Positions 1 to 12,074 of a stretch of DNA of 64,000 bases are shown here, piece by piece. Made by a program: the position numbers and the translations under genes. The notes under the pieces are model-generated. The model saw only the letters and a program-made list of their open reading frames with translations. It ran no database searches and was not told the DNA's origin. Where the stretch lies: assembly GCA_043228905.1 (NCBI GenBank), contig JBHGNT010000006.1:19840001-19904000 (forward strand), given 5' to 3'. How positions within the stretch are numbered: position 1 is the first letter of the stretch; each line of letters starts with the position of its first letter. This DNA comes from Azolla caroliniana (Eukaryota > Plantae > Polypodiophyta).

Positions 1-834
1 TAGCCAACAAAATGCTTTTGAAGCATGTGAACATTGAACACATTGTTTGGGGAAAAGATGCCCTCATTCACCGAATTGCTGGGTTTTATATTTGAGCTTA
101 TTGACTAGGATTATATATAAAGGGAATAACTACTATTTAGAAAGGGTTCTCTTAATTTTATGACTTTGTTGCTACGGCACAGGGCGATTCATAGCCTATG
201 TAGCCATATGTTGTTCGAGTTTGCACCATCCATGCAAAAAACACTAGAAAATCGATCATAATAAAGGAATCACATGATGATTACTAGGGTAGTTCAACCT
301 ATCTAATCCAGATGGTGGGCGAGTTGAATGCATAGGAAAACACAAAAAGAAAGAGAGATGTATTTGATGAGCTCTCTAGGTAGTGGCAACACCGAATCCA
401 AATCTAGGGACGACGCTACCGTAATCTTAATAACTCTTCTAGTATATATGACCATTGACAACCATGTGGTAGTGATAGGAGCTCAAATCATAAACTTAGA
501 GAAGGGTGACAAGAAAAAAGGAAGCATCGTGGCATTTCGTCGCGACAAGTGGGAGATATATGGTTTGCCACTACTACGTGCAGCTGCATTGCAGTAGCAT
601 TTATTTATTTCTTCGCAAACAAGTGGGACGCATATGGGTTGCCGGGATGTTAAAATATTTGTGAAGCACCAAGAATGTGAGAATGGGGGGGGGGGGGGGG
701 TGCTCTCTCGATCATTCGTGATCGAGCCAATGAGAGAGAGAGAGAGAGTGTCTGTGTGTGACACAAGCAATCCAATCACTAGTGACTCCCCCCACGATGT
801 AAGCAAGATTGTATGTGGACGCACAAAGCACAGC

Positions 835-854
835 CAGTGTTGCCTTTTGACGGC
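835..854 (+). repeat. Left terminal inverted repeat of hAT element
   Basis: Exact reverse complement of 5947-5966; preceded by 8-bp TSD. Confidence 0.95.
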
Positions 855-1150
855 CGTTTTGAACGTTTTTGGCAAATTTAACCGTATATGAAAGTTAATT
901 TTAAAATGAAACCGTCAATCTTGACGGGCATATGTTTTATGAAAACGTAAAAATGAAGGCTTAAAATTTCATAATACCGTCAAATTTTACTAAGACCAAT
1001 ACTATAGTAGTATAGTCCTAGGTAGTAGGAACAAATTGTTCAAGTTGCATTGGGAGTGTAGGAATTTGAAAGGCTCACATATGTCACTAATAACTATGTG
1101 TGTAACAAAAAGGTAAAAAAACTAATAGAGTCTAAATTATGAATCTTTAC

Positions 1151-1202
1151 TTCCCTTTTCCCCCCTTTTCCCCCCTTTTCCCCCATTTTCCCCCATTTTC
1201 CC
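1151..1202. repeat. 10-bp tandem repeat (TTTTCCCCCC/A)n; G-run array on minus strand
   Basis: About five units visible directly. Confidence 0.75.
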
Positions 1203-1313
1203 TGTTTGTTCGTTGCTCCCTCAGCCCTGCACCTTGCTGGAAGCTTGTTGCTCGTTGCCAGCTACTCATAGATTCAACATCTCCTGCAGCAGTCCTCCTC
1301 AACCATCTAAGGT

Positions 1314-1360
<47 letters not shown>

Positions 1361-1821
1361 ATCCATTTTTGCTGCTAGTCTTTCCAGAATGACTGATATC
1401 ATCTGAATAGTTGTGATTATTCATTCCTGTCTTATATGGTTGTGATATGTGCATCACTCGTAGACTTGAACACTGCCAAACAAAAATTCCAAGAAGCGAT
1501 TCAAGTCACCATTATATGTAGATGGATCCGGAGGCTTTTATATTTCAATTTATGACTTTGACAACCAGCCTTCTCAGTGGATGGATACTATCTTTCTGCT
1601 TGTCTGAAATCAAAGTTAAGAAACTGATCTCTCGTCTTGCAGTTAGAAGACAGAATGTGCACGTTGGTCTACAGTTTTCTAATTGCACCCAATCTTCATT
1701 TTTTTGGACATACTTGGCCAATTTCTTGTATCTTCCTTTCAATTCTGTTTTCACTTTGTTCAGGTGCTTGTGCTACCTCTACTTCCTTTTGCTCTTCTAC
1801 AAAAATGGCTGGAGATTTTGC

Positions 1822-2692
1822 ATTACTCAAATAGTTTTGTGATTGTCATTACTCAAATAGTCACTTAAAAACTAACTGAAACAAGAGGGGGGAACATAAC
1901 ATTTGCACTGAAAAAGAAACAACAAAATGTACTGACCTCTTCCACAACGGAAGCAAAGTCTTAGATAACAAAAACACAATCTCCATGATTAAATAAACAT
2001 TAGTACCTCATAGGTTTCATTCAACTCTCTGCAGAGGATGACACTCCACCAAATTGCAACCAAAAGTTCTCTACTTGATTTCAGCCCTCTGTAGTGGAAG
2101 AGACCACGCCAGATGCAACAGACACATTACTTGAATCCAAACCACCAGTACTAACACCACCTTTCCCCTCACCTTGATTGTATACATGCTGAGCAGTGCC
2201 TTGAGAATGGTCATCATAAGTGTTTCCATAGCTTGTCGAGTTTCCATAGCCTTGTTGAGTTGAGGTAGGGTGAGCATAACCAGATTGTGGTGGAGGAATA
2301 GACCCTTGAATAGCATAGTTTGGTGGGGGTTGTATTGGCCCCTGACTACCATATAATGCACTTGATCCTGGTTGTGAAGCTCCATAGCTAGAAGGTTGTT
2401 GGCCATAACTACTTGGTTGTCCATAATTAGTTGGCAACGACCCTTGAGTACCATATCCTTGAGTATTATATCCAGATTGAAGTTGTCCATAACCACCTTG
2501 AGAAGAACCACCAGATCCTGTTGAATCCTCTTGAGGGGGATACCCTGGTTGAAAGGAACCCCCTTGCCCATAGGTTGGAGCAGATTCTTGTTGGTTATAG
2601 CTCGTGAGTTGATGTTGACCATACCCAACTTGTTGACTTGTTTGGCCATATTGATTAAAACCTGGTTGTTTAGCAGCTTCTTGATTAGGCAC
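1822..2692 (-). pseudogene. 5'-truncated retrocopy of a host gene 3' end: SYGQ/P-rich low-complexity coding tail (2081-2692) plus 3'UTR-like sequence
   Basis: Flanked by 16-bp direct repeat TGGCTGGAGATTTTGC (1806-1821, 2693-2708); 203-codon open frame ending in TGA at 2081, then a U-rich UTR-like tract and a short duplicated tail. Source gene (an RNA-binding protein C-terminus?) is inference. Confidence 0.72.
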
Positions 2693-2708
2693 TGGCTGGA
2701 GATTTTGC

Positions 2709-3312
2709 TCTTCCGGTTGATTTTTCTTCTCCAGTTTCTGAAGTATGTTGGTTTCCCCTACTTCCTTTTGCTCTTCTATACCCTTTGATTTCTCCAGCTA
2801 TAATATAGGTATATATATATGATGAAATTTCTTCGAGAATTCACAAATAGTTTGTTGTAAATAGGTGAAAAGAAATCTCCAGAAATTCAATCCAAGGAAC
2901 TGAGACGATAGATCAAACCCTAATGGTGAGAGTCTCTATAAATAGAAGACCCAAATTTAGACCAAAACAAGCAAACTAAAGAAGCAAAATTTAGTTAAAA
3001 AGAAGATGAAAGAGAGAAATTACATTTATTCTCTATTTCTCTTTTCCTTTTTTATTTCTTTTATTCTCGACCTTCAAGCTCTGTCCAACTCGCAGTGACG
3101 AAAATACAAACAGCATAAAAACAAACCAACAAATAAATAAATAAATTCAAGGAAAATATTTCCTCTTGGAATTTGGAAGAATAATATCTGTTATTGGGTT
3201 AATATTATTACAAAATACCCTTTGGTGTAGTATCACGTAATTACAGCTGATACCCTTCGTATTTTTGTTCTAAATTCTAATACGTGACTCCCCCCCCATT
3301 CACACCTTAACA
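2709..3312 (+). mobile_element. LTR-like retroelement fragment in the hAT leader intron (target of the retrocopy; probably also 1400-1821)
   Basis: CTATAAATAG TATA box at 2936-2945, LTR-like end GTGACTCCCCCCCCATTCACACCTTAACA at 3312, possible decayed PBS after it; no TSD or 5' end found. Confidence 0.35.
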
Positions 3313-3588
3313 TCTGAGTTTGAGCCTCGTCCATTGACTTTTTTCCTATTCCCGATGCTCCACTTCAAACCCTTGTTGTTCTGATCCACCCAAATTCTTT
3401 TACTAGTCCATCAAAACTAGTATTGCTCTCCTCTTTAAGGGCAAAAGTTTGGGAATTATATTCATGTAAAATCTCATTGCCCAACAGGTCATAACTAATA
3501 TGTATGGGTTTAATGATGCTAGTGATTGTTTTGAATTGATGGTATGATCTTTTCTTACATGACCCATTGCTTCTTATTCAGAATAATT

Positions 3589-5829
3589 ATGGCTCCTAAA
3601 AGAAAAAACCAACGAACCATCAGTGCGATGTTTGCATGGAAACCACCCAACGATACCAATGACATAAATCTAAACAATGATTTAAATGAGGATATGGATA
3701 TGTTTGGGACTGATTTAGAGAGTTTAACTCGAGAGAGTTGTTCCTCTAATATAACTAAAGAAAAGCCTAAGAGAAAATTCCGTGAAGCATGGAGAGATAA
3801 ATTCCCATGGATAAGATGCATTGTGCAAGGAGACAAAACATTAATGAAATGTGCATGGTGTGAGAAATACGCTAGTCCTGGGCCTTGGGGTCTTGGTTCT
3901 GGATGCATTACTTTGCAACTTGATGCAATTTTGACCCATGTCAACTCAAGTGGTCATAAATTATGTGCATCAAAGTGGATATGTGATGTTGAAGGGAAAG
4001 CAATGTCCATCCCAAAGCATGTATCACAATTAGATGATATTAACAAAAATAAGGTCATAACAACAATGAAACTCATGTACTTTATTGCAAAAAAAGATTT
4101 GTCTATCGCTACATACCAAGAATTATGTGATTTGGCTGTGCTACTAGAGGTGCCTAATATGCCTAAGCAACATGATTATATATCTTATACTAGTAGATAT
4201 GGGGGATATGAATTTTTGGTTGCCTTCGGGAAATATCTTCTAGAAATTCAAAGCTCAAACCTAATAAATTCCCCATACTACTCTTTGATGCTAGATGAAA
4301 GTACTGACAATGGATTAGAGTTGCATCTCATTATGTATGTTACATATTTGCAATGTGGTGGTTGTGGGCCTAAGCAAACTGAATATATGGGTTTGCTGAA
4401 AATTCCCATTGGTAAAGGTAGAACTATATATGAACATGTTAAGCATCTATTAGGCGATCGATGCCTCAACATGAACAAGTTGATCGGATTGGCAACTGAT
4501 GGTGCATCATCAATGATTGGTAGTGAAATTGGAACAGTAACATTAATGAAAAATGATATCCCAAATTTGGTTGGTGTACATTGTATTGCTCATAGAGAAG
4601 CATTGGTTATTTCAGATGTATCTAAAGATATCCCTGAGCTCATTCTTGTAGAAAAAATTGCAAATAAGGTATATGCATGGGCTAACAATAGTACCAAAAG
4701 GACACATGAAATTTTAGAGCTCTTGGAACAAATGCAATTGGATGCTCATAGACCATTACAAATTCATAATATTCGTTGGTTGTCACGTGGTCAAGTCATG
4801 GAAAGACTAGTGAGTATAATGCTTGCAATACTTACTATTTGGAAGAAAGAGAACTTAAACGAGTGGTATAATAAAGCTTGTATCTATAGTGTGCAATTTT
4901 GCTTTTGTATGATGGCTGATGTGTTGCATTTGATGAATATCTTGAGCTTGAAACTTCAAAAAGAGAATTTGGATGTAACTTCAATTGGTGCAGAAATTGA
5001 TATTACAATTTCTAATTTGCGGAGGTCTTTCTTGAGAAATGACACATTTGCGGATGGAACAATGTATTTATCCAAGTTCTTAAGATGTTCTAAAGTTGGG
5101 TTTTTGGAAATAGAGGATAAAGATGGCGTTACATATAGACATGAACTATACTTCAAACAAATTCCTATGGATAAAGCAAGTCAAAATGATCCAAATCCCA
5201 ATATTGCAAAATCTAAGGGAATGAGGCCATTTATAGATAGATCACTTGAAAGTTGTATTAAACTATCTCAAAATTATGTGCAAAATGTTATTGATGGACT
5301 AAATGCAAGATTCCCTGACTTAAGCCTCTTCAATGCAGCAAAATTATTCAGCCCATGCCATTATGCAGATGATGATGTGATTAGGGATAGTAAAGCAAAG
5401 ACATGGTTGGGAATTTTGATTTCTCACTTACAGCCAAATGTTGATGTCAATGCATGTCCTCAAATTTCACATGATGCAAAGGCTTGTGAAATGGAACTCT
5501 ATAGGTTTGTTGACACTTTACGTTTAAATTGTGAAGGCTATACTATGCATGAAGCTTGGCGTATGTTTTGCAAAATGAAGGATTGGCAAGATAGTTTCCC
5601 TCATTTGATGAAATTATGGCAAGCTACTTTGGTTATTCCTTCTAGCACAGTTTCGTGTGAGAGAGGGTTCTCTAAGCAAAATCTCATCAAAGAGATGAAA
5701 AGAAATCGATTGAATATAGAGCATTTAGATGATTTAATGCGAGTCTCATTGAATGGGCCACGCATTGAAGAAATACAATGGGATCGTGTACATGAAATTT
5801 GGAAAGATGCAAAGGATAGAAGGATATAA
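3589..5829 (+). CDS. hAT-family DDE transposase (ZNF862-like), about 746 aa
   Basis: Uninterrupted ORF (track 3544-5829; likely start MAPKRK at 3589 after acceptor TTCAG ending 3581). N-terminal CxxC..H..H zinc finger, catalytic LDESTD, ATDGAS and SCERGFS motifs, CIAH and IRWLS motifs. Confidence 0.92.
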   Translation: MAPKRKNQRTISAMFAWKPPNDTNDINLNNDLNEDMDMFGTDLESLTRESCSSNITKEKPKRKFREAWRDKFPWIRCIVQGDKTLMKCAWCEKYASPGPWGLGSGCITLQLDAILTHVNSSGHKLCASKWICDVEGKAMSIPKHVSQLDDINKNKVITTMKLMYFIAKKDLSIATYQELCDLAVLLEVPNMPKQHDYISYTSRYGGYEFLVAFGKYLLEIQSSNLINSPYYSLMLDESTDNGLELHLIMYVTYLQCGGCGPKQTEYMGLLKIPIGKGRTIYEHVKHLLGDRCLNMNKLIGLATDGASSMIGSEIGTVTLMKNDIPNLVGVHCIAHREALVISDVSKDIPELILVEKIANKVYAWANNSTKRTHEILELLEQMQLDAHRPLQIHNIRWLSRGQVMERLVSIMLAILTIWKKENLNEWYNKACIYSVQFCFCMMADVLHLMNILSLKLQKENLDVTSIGAEIDITISNLRRSFLRNDTFADGTMYLSKFLRCSKVGFLEIEDKDGVTYRHELYFKQIPMDKASQNDPNPNIAKSKGMRPFIDRSLESCIKLSQNYVQNVIDGLNARFPDLSLFNAAKLFSPCHYADDDVIRDSKAKTWLGILISHLQPNVDVNACPQISHDAKACEMELYRFVDTLRLNCEGYTMHEAWRMFCKMKDWQDSFPHLMKLWQATLVIPSSTVSCERGFSKQNLIKEMKRNRLNIEHLDDLMRVSLNGPRIEEIQWDRVHEIWKDAKDRRI

Positions 5830-5946
5830 TATATTGTTTCGTACAAATATTCGATGTATTTACTTTTTGAAGGGCATTTTTTTTGACAAACCGTCAATTT
5901 GACGGGCAAAATTTTTGGAATACCGTTCTCATGACAGGCAATGTTA

Positions 5947-5966
5947 GCCGTCAAAAGGCAACACTG
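5947..5966 (-). repeat. Right terminal inverted repeat of hAT element
   Basis: GCCGTCAAAAGGCAACACTG followed by TSD AGCACAGC. Confidence 0.95.
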
Positions 5967-6002
5967 AGCACAGCTAATTCCACAAGGCAATGGATGTAGG
6001 CT

Positions 6003-6582: not shown

Positions 6583-7808
6583 ATGGCTGATTCAGCTCAA
6601 TATAACACTTGTTCTGATGGGCCTTACAGACCTGATTACCTTCCTCTTCTTCAAATTCCTCCTCCTTCTCCTCCTTCATCTCTGAATCCACCAGAAGAAG
6701 CAGCGCCGCCCCTCCATCTCATGCGGCCTTCTTCCACCACCGCCTGTATTGCTCCCCCTCCCCCTTCACCTCCCCATTACCTCTCCTCCTCCTCCTCCTC
6801 CTCCTCTTCTGCTCCTCCTCCTCCTCCGCCATTCCATCCATCTCCGCCGCCCTCCTCCCTTTCTTCCATGCAATTCAACCCCCTCTCTTCTTCCTCCTCC
6901 TCCCATGGCTCTGATCCTTTCCTCGAATCCCTTAACGACCCCATATCCTGGCCCTTCTGGAGCCAATACTGCCTGCAGACCTTGGACGATCACGACAGGC
7001 TGGCCCTCCATTCCATGAACAGTCATGATGGTGACTATCTCGGAGAACTGGTCACACCTCCTCCTCCTCCTCCGCCGCCGCCGCAGATCAAGAGCTGGAA
7101 TGGCTCAACCAATACTATTGCTGGCCTGCCCCCGCTCCCTCTCCCTCTCCCTCTCCCTCTCCCTGTGCCTGCAAGTAGCTTCTCCAGGTGCCTGCAGGAG
7201 GGCATGAACATGGACGACATGGATTACAAGAACCTGCTTTTCGAGCAATTCCTGAGATGCGGAAGCAGTAATTCTGCCGACAGTAGCGCTAATCATTATT
7301 CGAAGAAGAACGGGCCGGATCAAGCGGTCCGCACAGGCAGGGCACAGACAGACAGGGACCGATCTAGCGACGGCAGAGCGGGAGGGGCGTCCGTACAGGT
7401 CGGCGGCGGCTCTAGGGCGCAGCAGGACGGCGGAGCGGCCGTACGCCTGGGGGGAGGGGGGTCCGTACAGGGATCGGGTGGGGACGGCGCGCAGCCGGAC
7501 ACGCCTGCGAATTCGTCGCTCTCAAATTCGAGCTTATCTAGTGGTGGTGGTGGTGGTGGTGGTGGTAGAGCAGGAGCAGGGTTATTGAGGAATGTTCGGA
7601 GAAAGCAGGATGCAGGAGAACAGCAGGAGGAGGATGAAGAAGCAGAAGCAGAAGATGAAGATGATGAAGAAGAAGAAGAAGAAGAGGAGGAGGAGGATGG
7701 AGTATGTAATGAAGCTGTGAATGGAGAGGATGGAGGAGGTGTGCAGGCGGCGGAAGCTATGGCGGCGGAAGCTATGGCGGCGGCGGAATCGACACAGAAG
7801 AAGAAGAC
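6583..7808 (+). CDS. WRKY: WRKY gene exon 1 (low-complexity N-terminal region)
   Basis: 409-aa ORF ending at donor AC/GTAAGG (7809). Confidence 0.85.
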
Positions 7809-9528
7809 GTAAGGGAACCTCTTCTCCACGTCACAATTTCTGATAATAATAATAATAATTTTAATATTAATATTAATTTTGTTAAACAAAAAAAGAAGAC
7901 AGATATTTCAAGGCTACTTCATTTCTCATTCCACACTCGATGGATTGTTGTCCGCTTCCCGAAAGATAGATAGATACACACCACGCGTGACCCAACATTT
8001 GCATTGCCTCTCGGACACATACCTAATGGCCTAGAAAACATATGGCCCAAGACATTTATTGCATGGTTCATGTTAAGAGTTTTTCGGCAAGTTTGTACCG
8101 GTTGTGGTGGCTCTTAAAACATAACAAGTTTCTTTGATTCTTTCCAATCATCTTGATATCCTTACCTTATTGGGCTGCCTCACTTACGAAAAGCTCGTAA
8201 TGTTTTAGGTTGTGGCGTGACGAGCCCCTTTAATGTCGACTGCACCCACTTGCACCTACATAGAATTGACTTACTACTGGTTCGCGGATCAATAAGCTCG
8301 CAATGTTAGGGATAGGGTCGACAAACATCCCCCCTACCCAATCCATCACAAGAGGTCTCCATCCTCTAGAGTCCTAGATTCTTGTTGCATAAGCTCATAA
8401 TGTTATTCGTCCGGGGCCGATAACAACTCACAACAATGAACGCTATAGGGAAACATGAGAGGAAAATTATCGCTTACGTAAGCTTCATCATATTGTTGTG
8501 TGTGTATACAACATCTATCATATGTATTAATCATCTAAAAATGAATAATGTGAATGAAATCAGTTTGCCATAGTCTCCTTTGTATATTAATGTTCGCGTT
8601 GCCAATATGTGCAGAAACACCGAGAAGGCACCCAAGGTGAAAGGTCAAAAGCGGCAACGAGAGCCTCGCGTTGCGCTCCTCATCAAGAGCGAAGTGGATC
8701 ACCTTGAAGATGGCTTCCGTTGGCGCAAATATGGTCAGAAAGCTGTAAAGAACAGCCCGTTCCCAAGGTACTTGCCTACCTTATTAGCATTGTCTAGGAA
8801 AGCAATTTCTTGGTGTGAACACTCACATCTTTTCTCGAAATGCTTTTATATGTTTGCAATGTGTATTTTCTTTTGGCTTTTCTCAAGTTCCCTTGTATGT
8901 TGTCGATATATACAAGTTGATTTCTTTGGAATTGTAAATGGTTTAGATTTAAAATCTTGTTGTGATGATCAATTTGTTTACCCTATAAATTACCAGGAGT
9001 TATTACAAATGCACCAATAGCAAGTGTATGGTGAAGAAACGAGTGGAGCGATCGTTTGAGGATCCGACCATGGTTGTCACCACATACGAGGGTCAACACA
9101 ATCACCACAGCCCAGCACTATTACGTGCTGGGATTGTGCCGCCTATTGGGACATTGTCTTCTCACGATAATGCCAGTCGCCTAAATCAACTCCAGTATGC
9201 AGACATTCTTAATAATGTAATGCCAAACTCATCTCAATTCGCTTTCCCTTCCCAAAATTCCTCACAAGAGAACTATCATTTCCAAAATGATCAACAAAAG
9301 CACTACCAAAACCAACCCCAACACATGGCGAACACATCCTTGCCACGTTTAATCCCTCCACCTTCTTTGCAACAAACTCAATTACGACACATTAACCACC
9401 CCAAAACGTTAGATCAATTCAACACAGGAGGCTTGCAGTATGGTCCAATTAGCACGACCACAAACACGAGTGAAGGACTCCTTGAAGATTTGATTTCCTT
9501 TGGTACTAGTGGTACATTATCCTCCTAA
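6583..9528 (+). CDS. WRKY: WRKY transcription factor, group IIc; 3 exons (6583-7808, 8615-8767, 8997-9528), about 636 aa
   Basis: Spliced product gives [72 protein letters not shown] (C-X4-C-X23-HXH); conserved phase-2 PR intron; GT-AG junctions keep frame (1226+153+532=1911 nt); long P/S/G/E low-complexity N-terminus. Confidence 0.93.
8615..8767 (+). CDS. WRKY: WRKY gene exon 2 (WRKYGQK)
   Basis: Acceptor TGCAG ending 8614; donor AG/GTACTT at 8768. Confidence 0.92.
8997..9528 (+). CDS. WRKY: WRKY gene exon 3 (C2H2 zinc finger, Q/N-rich tail)
   Basis: Acceptor TACCAG ending 8996; EGLLEDL motif near C-terminus; TAA at 9526-9528. Confidence 0.92.
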
Positions 9529-12074
9529 TTAACTTTGGAATACCCACATTTTTCCTCCCCCTTCTATTCATTCCCTAGTGAATAACCCAATGCAATATAT
9601 ATACATATATAATGCCTTGTATATAATAATTATAACATAGAATTAATGTGTATATTGAACAATAACTATGCCTAGTTTAATGTTAGTTGAGAACACAGAT
9701 GGGGCTTCTTATTTTGCATATCAACACGTTGTGAGACAATGTGAGTGTAATATGAGGTGGGTGCTTGGTGGCGTTCATGAGCACCACGAGGCATTACTCA
9801 AAGCTAGTTCCAACCAAAAACACAAGTTAACTTACATTACTAATAGCCATGTGCTAGTGTAGCTTAATTTCACATTTGTCAAAACACACATTGTTTCGAA
9901 TAATTGTCTTGATCTAAGTTAGCAAGTGTATTCTCTCTAAATCCACTAGATTTCTATGTCTCTATTTTTTAAGAGTACTTTGAGGATTTTGAGGTCTCAC
10001 ACTTCTCTATCTTTGAGGTTCAAAGTTTGAAGCATCTAGTTTAATCAATGGTATGTTGTTAGATGGAAATGTTCCAAGCAAAGTTCTCTCATAATGCTAT
10101 TAAATATTTTGGGGATGTGGCTCTATTTAAATATTGTTCGTTTAATTTGTGCAATACAATAGCTATGGTCGGCCACAAGTTACAACCCTTGCATGCACGG
10201 TCTGCAAGTTAGTACCTTGAGAATGGTGATAACCTTGGTCTGCTTCGGTAACTAGGTTCCCTAGAACTGGTACTCATGATGGAGATGCATTCGAAAGAGA
10301 ATGGAGAGCACGTAATCCTCAACAAGCCTTCCCATGCCATGATCCACATGTTGCCACCTTTAGATATCATGAACTTTGCCAAAACCATACACAAGCAAGT
10401 GGCTCTATCAAAACCACACCATAGTTTTCAAATTGATGGCTCATTTCTTAATGCTACGTGTTATAGCAATGTGTTACATTCATGATGAATAGTTAGCTAG
10501 ATGACTCTTCCAATTATTTAACTAACATTTTCAAATACTTTCAACCCTTTAAATGTGTATGCTCAATTGGTATAAGACAAGAGTCTTTCGACACTCTATC
10601 CTTGTTTTCATAACTTTGTAAGTCACGATCATGACATTGGCAAAAGAGCTTCCATACATTCTTTCTTTTCAAGGTTTTGTTCTGGTGTGATTTTGGACAA
10701 TGGATTTGAGCTCAGATCTATGAGAACAAGTGTAGTTCTTTGCATTACTATGGTTATGGTAGGATTTATCATCATAAAATGTAGTTACATATAAACTAAA
10801 TTAACTTAAAACAATGAAAACTAACCAACCTCATAAATTGTCGAAAAAGTGCAAAAGGCACGATCACACACATACCCACAGACAATTCAAGTATATATAT
10901 ATATAATAAAAGTCCATGCAAGTCTACTTTGTAAACTATTCTCAAGAATATTTTTTAGTATATGCTCAAGAATATATTAGGCACATACAAAATCGAAAAC
11001 ATGCAAGGATGATATGCCTAAACATCCCTTTCATGAGCAGATAGTTTAAGTGCAAACCTTGATATTGGCACTAGCCATCTCTCTAATATCTTGATTGTCT
11101 TGCTAACCATCTCTCTAATATGGACTCTCTAACTCTCTCTCTCTCTCTCTCTCACTAATTTATTGAGATGCTACATCAATGGTATAAAGAAATGCGCGTG
11201 TTGTAATACCTTATATTTAGTAACTTATGAAAGCCACACTGCATGGTTTCTATTGGCTTGTTAAGTGTAGACGCAATACATGTAGTGGCAATACCTTAGT
11301 TATTTACAAGAATATGATATTGACTTAGGACTCATATCAACATTCATTGTTTGTAACCAATTGGATGTGAGTTGGGCACAATTATCATGGGATATTGGTA
11401 GTTGACATATCCATTTTTTGGTTCAAACAAGGTTGAAGTGTCTTGTTACGTGTGTGTCTATTGAGATACATATACTTGGATGACTAATATCTGTAGACTG
11501 TCTTAATAACAAGTCACATCCTTGAAGGTGAATATCAATATTTGAGCACCCATAGCCCACGTGCATGTTTGAGTTTTGACTGGTGCTATTGTAAGTTCCA
11601 TGATAATGTATTGAAGAAGGAATATGTGAAACCATTCATTTATAGCCACATTAGAAATTAAATACATTGATACCCCTATATGCAATCCTTGATACACTTA
11701 AGCTCCATAACAAAATGTTTTAAGTATGAAGTGAAATAATTTGTTTATAGTCACATAAGAAATTAAAATGCATGGATACTCTACATGTGATTCTTGACAT
11801 GCCATGCCGAAAATGTTCATAATACACCTACTAGGTTCACAACCTTATTTCATAAAAAATTCTTAAATCTCAATGGATTGTATTAAGATGCTGAATTAAC
11901 AAACATCATTATCAAAGTATTGAGCATTAATCAATAACGTATATTTATGTTTTTATTTTCTGATAATATGTGTTAAAAAATGTCTTTACCTTTATGAAAT
12001 TACTTTTTGCAAGTAAGGGTTGAAAACAAGTATTTCATGCATCTTTTACTAAAATAGGAAGACTTCATAGGGGA

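Follow-up and report, generated by a model that had tools for sequence, protein, structure and literature searches.

Apparent serial replacement of host-gene cargo behind a (CT)n tract in the leader of a hAT transposon

How did the 3' end of a host gene come to lie, in antisense, in the leader of a transposon with an intact transposase, and from which genome was it taken? The question is raised by a hAT element in a window of 64,000 nucleotides of Azolla caroliniana (the whole stretch analyzed, G000:C6:19840001-19904000; the genome searched, G000, comprises 523 Mb). A sequence-only reading had taken the piece, which encodes a tail rich in S, Y, G and Q (SYGQ), for a single retrocopy placed there by a long interspersed nuclear element (LINE). 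Comparison of the family copies points to a wider process: we consider it rather probable that a slot behind a (CT)n tract of this hAT is repeatedly overwritten by LINE machinery targeting (GA)n/(CT)n, and that the version in the window was loaded in a related species. Both the serial replacement of cargo and the foreign donor lineage had been missed before.

At least seven cargo states at one slot

The carrier, with terminal inverted repeats (TIRs), a target-site duplication (TSD) and a transposase open reading frame (ORF), comprises the following features:

835..5966: hAT element
827..834: left copy of the TSD, AGCACAGC, 8 bp
5967..5974: right copy of the TSD, AGCACAGC, 8 bp
835..854, plus strand: 5' TIR, 20 bp, exact
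5947..5966, minus strand: 3' TIR, 20 bp
1303..1315, plus strand: family-conserved motif with predicted splice donor AAG/GTAG (1311/1312), from a pattern search
1316..1357, plus strand: (CT)21 tract, directly behind which the cargo starts in all seven cargo subfamilies
3541..3581, plus strand: pyrimidine tract and predicted acceptor CAG/ (3581), 7 nt ahead of the transposase ATG
3589..5829, plus strand: hAT transposase ORF, 746 aa, intact

Short TIRs, an 8-bp TSD and an intact transposase with a dimerisation domain (zf-C17orf113 and Dimer_Tnp_hAT in Pfam, PF05699 above cut-off) mark what appears to be an autonomous-type hAT. The donor motif has 45 matches in the genome against 8 for a control pattern; no splicing at 1311/1312 was seen in reads, and this donor is a prediction. 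A DNA search of the genome with the insert-bearing query gave 11 matches from 11 candidates, namely seven full copies, one split copy (two matches), the parent gene of the insert on C4 and one locus on C3. All eight insert-bearing copies lie within hATs and have distinct 8-bp TSDs, so the loaded element has transposed at least eight times after cargo loading, in agreement with the spread by cut-and-paste that the sequence-only reading had proposed. An 8-bp TSD flanks all 16 complete family copies examined, as well as the split copy, with TIRs of 20 bp. The full 746-aa ORF is kept in six of the seven unsplit insert-bearing copies, and pairwise differences among seven compared copies amount to 0.06-0.35%.

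Many further copies share the transposase region and differ over 1320-3390. They form sister subfamilies, with transposases 95-99.6% identical and other cargo directly behind the same (CT)n tract. Copies examined were the best 40 candidates per search, so all copy counts are lower bounds; cargo was named from Pfam, and FCF1 through a PDB search:

Subfamily A: the cargo of the window; at least 8 copies and one rearranged
Subfamily B: RPS7; at least 7 copies; the tract is (TG)n
Subfamily C: Ub-S27a; at least 12 matches at 98% or more, some of them partial
Subfamily D: RPL21; at least 4 copies
Subfamily E: OTU; at least 4 copies, in one of which an additional non-coding insert separates two (CT)n tracts
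Subfamily F: an RPL21 stub and an FCF1 piece; at least 2 copies
Subfamily G: the 3' exon of a gene on C1; at least 2 copies

One slot is therefore occupied by at least seven cargo states. Pfam gave no match for the FCF1 piece or for the parent of the G cargo, which we take to be renalase-like.

The RPS7 cargo maps to five host exons on C20 and lacks four GT-AG introns, while the RPL21 and Ub-S27a cargos map to two host exons each (on C21 and C8, respectively) and lack one GT-AG intron each, all with seamless joins. This precise loss of introns shows an RNA step in the capture of these three genes. Traces of earlier cargo are also retained: subfamily B keeps 35 nt of the RPL21 3' untranslated region (UTR) together with the distal leader of D, and OTU stubs of 48 to about 213 nt are kept in A, B, C, D and G. 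Because these RPL21 and OTU stubs persist, newer cargo evidently overwrites older cargo at the slot. In the transposase tree E, F and G are deeper, followed by D and C and then by B and A, the last two being 0.4-0.6% apart; the tree, from which L165 and L166 were left out (short coverage), is poorly resolved within A and B and sets A apart from most B copies at support 80. Orientable cargo is antisense to the transposase in six of the seven subfamilies.

Several loci add detail to this picture. Two B copies, L059 and L066 (C5:12.98 Mb and 13.00 Mb), share TSD and flank and hence represent a segmental or assembly duplicate rather than independent insertions. LTR (long terminal repeat)-retrotransposon-like sequences at L161:2648-3145 (C16) and L156:1942-2287 (C4) include a stretch of the hAT B/D leader (about 500 bp) together with a 5' fragment of Ub-S27a. 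In the L068 cargo and at L160:3061-3982 (C11), a non-coding, hairpin-like host sequence lies between two (CT)n tracts ahead of the OTU cargo, and a 254-bp part of it is also found in the leaders of B and D; L160, L068, L126, L157 and L055 gave no Rfam match.

The composite leader of the window's copy

In the window, the leader holds six host pieces: a 3' exon without a name, two parts of gene X, the tail of the KH gene, the 5' region of a CAMTA gene and the remains of an OTU gene:

1362..1717, minus strand: cargo piece 1, 3' exon/UTR-like piece of a host gene without a name
1717..1823, minus strand: cargo piece 2, left part of gene X (EEQKEV-repeat coding gene), with 0 differences to an organism-C contig
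1806..1821: native copy of a 16-mer, part of gene X
1822..1831: templated junction filler, matching the tract 1847-1861 as well as an inverted arm that the host gene has just downstream of its captured end
1832..2694, minus strand: cargo piece 3, from a host KH-domain gene, namely the 3' UTR and the last exon's 3' half with 203 codons and the TGA (2083-2081)
2693..2710: the 16-mer again, followed by TC, where gene X has the 16-mer, AT and 40 nt
2711..2780, minus strand: cargo piece 4, right part of gene X
2781..3384, minus strand: cargo piece 5, 5' region of a CAMTA gene (CG-1 domain), in which a GT-AG intron of 88 nt (2936-3023) is kept
3390..3437, minus strand: remnant of an OTU-domain gene (C2:3760935), the oldest cargo

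The stop-free, G/Q/S/P/Y-rich frame of 203 codons and its TGA are present on the minus strand as described previously, within a frame of 238 codons (2797-2081) that comprises 203 inside the insert (2692-2084) and 35 outside. The frame has no Pfam match. A DNA search identified its parent gene at C4:20460414-20461285, 95% identical to the insert (828/872), whose upstream exons carry KH_1 (Pfam, E 1e-17), as expected from the suggestion of a KH-type host gene; the captured part falls entirely within the last exon and 3' UTR. By this match the SYGQ tail is identified as the last-exon/3' UTR end of a host KH-domain gene, lying antisense in the hAT. FET-family proteins link a SYGQ domain to an RRM and a zinc finger, an arrangement that the parent, with KH_1 exons upstream of the low-complexity last exon, does not show. 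The prion-like composition appears incidental.

An antisense insert had correctly been recognized, its extent (1822-2692) less so, since host homology covers 1832-2694. The 35 upstream codons had been taken for target sequence beginning right after a possible acceptor at 2797. As the flanks are other host-gene pieces and not transposon DNA, both codons and 'acceptor' belong to host cargo, namely CAMTA 5' UTR and gene X; the intron that RNA reads show to be spliced is 2936-3023 instead of an intron with its end at 2797. The CAMTA piece matches, at 90% identity, the 5' part of a CAMTA gene of C3 (CG-1 matches in Pfam) and ends at the host start codon, with the ATG lost. Its intron (GT-AG, minus strand) is spliced in four organism-C poly(A) reads of run X21 and is retained in the element, so this piece would have come from DNA or unspliced RNA. 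Within and next to piece 1, window positions 1432-1722 are 85% identical to C6:22195701 and C1400, and organism-C mRNA reads over the piece run antisense to the transposase.

DNA searches for gene X in G000, searches with three patterns and a search with a 35-aa protein returned only the eight element copies or unrelated matches. Gene X is well expressed in organism C and is held by organism-A contigs, and its absence from the G000 searches may reflect an assembly gap or a search miss.

Could a single classical LINE insertion have brought the KH mRNA end, flanked by a 16-bp TSD, into a leader that was loaded before, and is the piece now expressed, be it as a chimeric exon or as antisense RNA? 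The perfect 16-bp direct repeat on which this proposal was built is exact at 1806-1821 and 2693-2708 (chance expectation about 0.009 pairs in the 5.1-kb element), and is adjoined by a 21-bp repeat at 1779/2758 that was overlooked. Reads and contigs link 1717-1823 of gene X to 2711-2780 via 40 further letters (three runs, with 27, 59 and 40 reads), and the read-covered stretch of the gene has a single exact 16-mer, followed by AT and 40 nt, where the element has the second 16-mer followed by TC. With one 16-mer in this stretch of the donor and two in the element, the second was made at or after capture, which speaks for the proposal. A 2-nt microhomology at the 5' junction of the KH piece, a cargo end near the RNA 3' end and a CAMTA upstream region pointing at the KH frame likewise favor such an insertion. 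Against it, the sequence immediately beyond the right 16-mer measures 42 nt in the donor and 2 nt in the element, and the joint of an empty site (1821-to-2709) was found neither in five DNA runs nor in G000, so that a clean LINE TSD is not established. The 16-mer duplication represents either a TSD with a separate 42-to-2 change or re-copying during template switching; taken alone, the TSD part of the proposal is evenly balanced.

The duplicated tail (15 nt, at 1821/1847) is present as described. The KH insert has no poly(A) tail, a 10-nt templated filler standing in its place that fits slippage on the tract 1847-1861 with 3-4 nt microhomologies, or else an inverted arm 7-17 nt beyond the captured end in the host gene (11/11). 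In one of the three organism-C RNA runs (X21), six molecules begin at 1847 (depth 8), and in all three KH coverage declines near 1832-1884, i.e., at the cargo end. For this single-exon piece without poly(A), an origin from RNA is somewhat favored.

Expression was assessed in organism-C RNA (12-13% of the reads of each of three runs, two covering the transposase), from samples not shown to carry the element. In the two poly(A) runs, transposase depth was 0 over nearly the whole coding sequence and 0.4-0.6 in one bin. At fixed sites differing from the element, the KH reads are of host type (176/176, 131/131 and 288/289); opposite-strand KH reads make up about 1% and are of the same host type, and loose read ends at 2694 and 2711 are host continuations. 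Neither chimeric junction reads nor element-type antisense reads occur in these runs, nor transposase reads outside the one bin, which leaves the chimeric-exon or antisense part of the single-insertion proposal unsupported; the lost CAMTA ATG also speaks against it.

The open frame had further been read as a sign of recent origin or of selection. Of 609 coding sites, 25 differ between the cargo and the G000 KH parent; when all 25 differences are simulated as neutral, the frame stays stop-free 28% of the time (P=0.28), so that an open frame needs no selection, a result that also counts against a single expressed insertion. Taking junctions and expression together, we consider that proposal improbable as a whole. 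What stands of it is a 16-mer duplicated at or after capture and, in the sister cargos, capture from RNA. Ratios of nonsynonymous to synonymous differences (pN/pS) between host and cargo are 0.14 for RPS7, 0.26 for RPL21, 0.04 for Ub-S27a, 0.10 for OTU and 0.26 for KH, i.e., the differences are mostly synonymous; copy-private changes give 0.40-1.73 in four genes, with five non-synonymous and no synonymous changes in KH. Selection on the KH frame was rejected, a low pN/pS being common to all five cargos and fitting a diverged functional donor. The SYGQ tail is likely a passive passenger.

Priming site, template and donor lineage

A source for the antisense polarity is suggested by LINEs of the same genome, of which the 30 top zf-RVT loci among 150 scored (5568 candidates) were analyzed. 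In 13 of the 30, a (GA)n tract of at least six units starts 380-480 nt downstream on the LINE's own strand; (CT) counts in the 380-480 nt bins are 0, and other 100-nt bins hold 0-1. A (GA)n tract also lies at or within about 25 nt of the 5' boundary in 6 of 18 examined LINE copies, the rest being unresolved or without one. Repeat tracts thus occur on both sides of LINE insertions, as in a microsatellite-targeting LINE. Within L172-L200 (e.g., L179, L195, L198 and L173) two LINE families are observed in which (GA)n stands at the end of the copies and often at their start as well, and one copy of this set sits in the tail of another LINE. These families are a candidate microsatellite-targeting plant L1 lineage.

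A free, 5'-truncated RPS7 retrocopy is found at L162:2440-3154 (G000:C11:17031439-17032153; also on C694), in what we take to be an intron of an ankyrin-like gene. It ends at the identical base to the B cargo and continues directly into (GA)n, which replaces poly(A). This retrocopy was rejected as donor of subfamily B, as it is without the 5' part of the cargo, has a deletion and is only 91% alike.

In target-primed reverse transcription (TPRT), priming from the nicked strand places the mRNA 3' end next to the target site. The antisense polarity of the cargo likely finds its explanation here, because the LINEs end in, and often start at, (GA)n: TPRT from the (CT)n strand would put the mRNA 3' end beside the tract and antisense to the transposase, as seen. 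In the mechanism that we favor, reverse transcription would be primed on an RNA 3' end by a nick in, or close to, the (CT)n strand, and short microhomologies would join the far end, deleting the old cargo. The KH piece may have entered by this route, or a template jump within a single compound event may have brought it in, and the cargo is predicted to be spliced out of the transposase mRNA and hence to be tolerated. The capture itself would belong to an organism-C-like lineage, with introgression or horizontal transfer as a later step.

A rival to this RNA-based view is a DNA-only, Pack-type capture, in which repair of the gap left by excision comes to a halt at the microsatellite and continues on a genomic DNA template, which may be a pre-existing retrocopy, with no RNA step at the element. 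It would accommodate the retained CAMTA intron, the sense orientation of FCF1, the match of the tail to the inverted arm, and junctions with microhomology and templated filler as in the Pack-TIR gap filling described in the available text of PMC8277862. Three spliced cargos and the strong antisense, 3'-end-first polarity are difficult to reconcile with it, as are parents spread over many chromosomes rather than nearby and the defects of the sole free RPS7 retrocopy found (that on C11 and C694); we hold it to be unlikely.

The donor lineage of subfamily A can be approached through read runs of related organisms, whose species assignment rests on unverified labels and from which X12-X20 and X24 are excluded. 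In organism-C run X11, one 827-nt contig over 1874-2694 (depth 67.9, contig depth being a rough guide and not copy number) differs from the window by two letters and a 6-nt insertion, as opposed to 33 substitutions and 9 nt between the cargo and the G000 host KH gene. This contig is entered from the host flank (depth 22.9) and from an element junction contig (depth 34.3) with 30 letters on its short side, one below the bridging rule. No difference separates the gene X cargo from X11; in X3/X6 there are 5-6 per 48-101 nt. In run X10, from the same sample as X11, a 663-nt contig has one difference and a CAMTA-region contig five where G000 has 26. Organism-A run X6 carries G000 host alleles at all seven listed sites, with an element-to-host depth ratio of 7.9. 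Over 1874-2694 the element is therefore much more alike between species than the host genes. In run X9 (organism B), the A element is nearly unchanged (junction contig 1717-1996, 0 differences) and the host CAMTA alleles are diverged.

Since host-versus-cargo differences are mostly synonymous, the donors would be functional orthologs from another lineage. Subfamily A likely received its cargo in an organism-C-like genome before a recent entry into the window's genome, by introgression or horizontal transfer; a similar transfer of subfamilies B-G may be suggested from pN/pS. An old capture within the window's own lineage, with parents since diverged or lost and no cross-species transfer, would fit the absence of gene X from G000 despite its presence in organism-A reads (assembly or search being incomplete) and would gain from the fact that the run labels are uncheckable. 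It is contradicted by a cargo 5-10% from local parents with synonymous bias when A is less than 0.6% from B in the transposase, by the near identity of the A cargo to genes of organism C and by the exclusively diverged host alleles in organism-A runs, and we regard it as highly improbable.

Weighing the mechanism against known systems

A number of observations weigh against LINE-primed rewriting followed by transfer. The CAMTA intron and the FCF1 piece of subfamily F, which is in sense and runs, seemingly unspliced, into an apparent intron, indicate that DNA-templated capture also occurs. Two deeper copies have a different, cargo-free leader, and the empty ancestor of the slot was not seen among the copies examined. 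As many as 17 of the 30 LINE loci are without (GA)n at the position in question, (GA)n is common genome-wide and several LINE tails are A-rich; (GA)n after LINEs could also partly represent decayed poly(A), a process treated in the available text of PMC3812793. The KH piece spans no intron, has no poly(A) and does not abut (CT)n, and its inverted-arm match is adverse because a first-strand RNA copy cannot supply a downstream arm. The roughness of contig depth, the unverified run labels and the source of the organism-C RNA, mentioned above, belong here as well.

Pack-MULEs are typically non-autonomous carriers with DNA-templated capture. The present family shares with Pack-type elements multicopy host fragments from several loci between TIRs, and departs from them in its intact ORF and spliced cargos, only CAMTA and FCF1 looking DNA-templated. 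Likenesses to Pack-TIR/Pack-MULE gap filling and FoSTeST, in the available text of PMC8277862, include host fragments, breakpoint microhomology, template switching at repeats and multicopy spread; capture is described there as DNA-templated with a cis bias, from which the present family departs by several spliced cargos, donors located on other chromosomes and a carrier that retains its transposase.

The closest parallel to capture from RNA is found in bat Helitrons, for which the accessible part of PMC4224331 reports LINE-type retrocopies, including ribosomal RPLP0, that were inserted in a DNA transposon and then amplified, with chimeras of promoter fragments and retrocopies and sequential captures as here. 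Those retrocopies have poly(A), TSDs and empty sites and sit in a rolling-circle element of mammals (PMC4224331, same part); here, by contrast, the carrier is a hAT with an intact ORF, cargo replaces cargo at one slot, and the (CT)n anchor is accompanied by at most a few A's. Dothideomycete hATs similarly combine TIRs, an 8-bp TSD and an amplified intron-less copy of a housekeeping gene (histone H3), with one cargo gene and inactivation by repeat-induced point mutation (RIP); the available text of PMC6710886 describes no serial replacement, microsatellite anchor or donor-species signal.

Microsatellite-inserting non-LTR retrotransposons belong to the HERO, Togen, Tx1 and R1 clades according to the part of PMC4640811 at hand, and plant L1s have been proposed to copy mRNAs in trans (PMC3472496, available text). 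In distinction from those targeters, the LINEs described here bear zf-RVT and appear plant-L1-like. In the literature covered—most subscription papers, Repbase and supplements were outside its scope—we found neither (GA)n targeting by zf-RVT plant-L1-like LINEs or its use on a DNA transposon leader, nor any description of this family or of an intact hAT with a slot that is serially overwritten and anchored at a microsatellite; a term search of the accessible text of a 2026 review (PMC13317346) gave 0 matches for hAT, retrocop and microsatellite.

Retrocopies in DNA transposons are known, but have been reported as isolated events. A single young family with intact transposases and at least seven cargo states, ordered by their stubs, makes the capture mechanism directly testable as to template, priming site and replacement, and links two classes of transposable elements through a microsatellite. 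Cargo also acts as a donor label naming the source lineage, which is usually missing in transposon-transfer studies, and through it gene fragments of a relative appear to have been placed in the window's genome. The sister subfamilies further provide a natural experiment for the hypothesis of camouflage by captured genes, proposed for transposons in the available text of bioRxiv 10.1101/777037. A bolder, adaptive reading would make (CT)n a reusable landing pad at which the hAT borrows a LINE to rewrite its leader with essential, highly expressed host mRNAs (ribosomal proteins, ubiquitin, KH and CAMTA), each rewrite serving as camouflage from small-RNA silencing and starting a new burst, including invasion of a sister species, with stacked cargo recording the genome of origin of each burst; this we judge to be distinctly unlikely.

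Two A-type copies are rearranged. The split copy (L021:3493 / L022:3501, C17:18421992-18432001) is interrupted by an LTR-like insertion of ~10 kb that begins with TG and ends with CA, at window-equivalent ~2750-2754 inside the gene X cargo, and in L063 (C14:2802446-2805891) an inversion and a deletion remove 1567-3165, KH piece included. Elsewhere in the window, a WRKY-type gene occupies 6584-9530 (plus strand), its WRKY motif exons presumably lying at about 8574-9528 and the hAT ending ~620 bp upstream of its likely ATG. Long ORFs at 32600-54000 (minus strand), of up to 1402 aa, with repeated termini at ~32.6 kb and ~37.5 kb, suggest stacked LTR retrotransposons.

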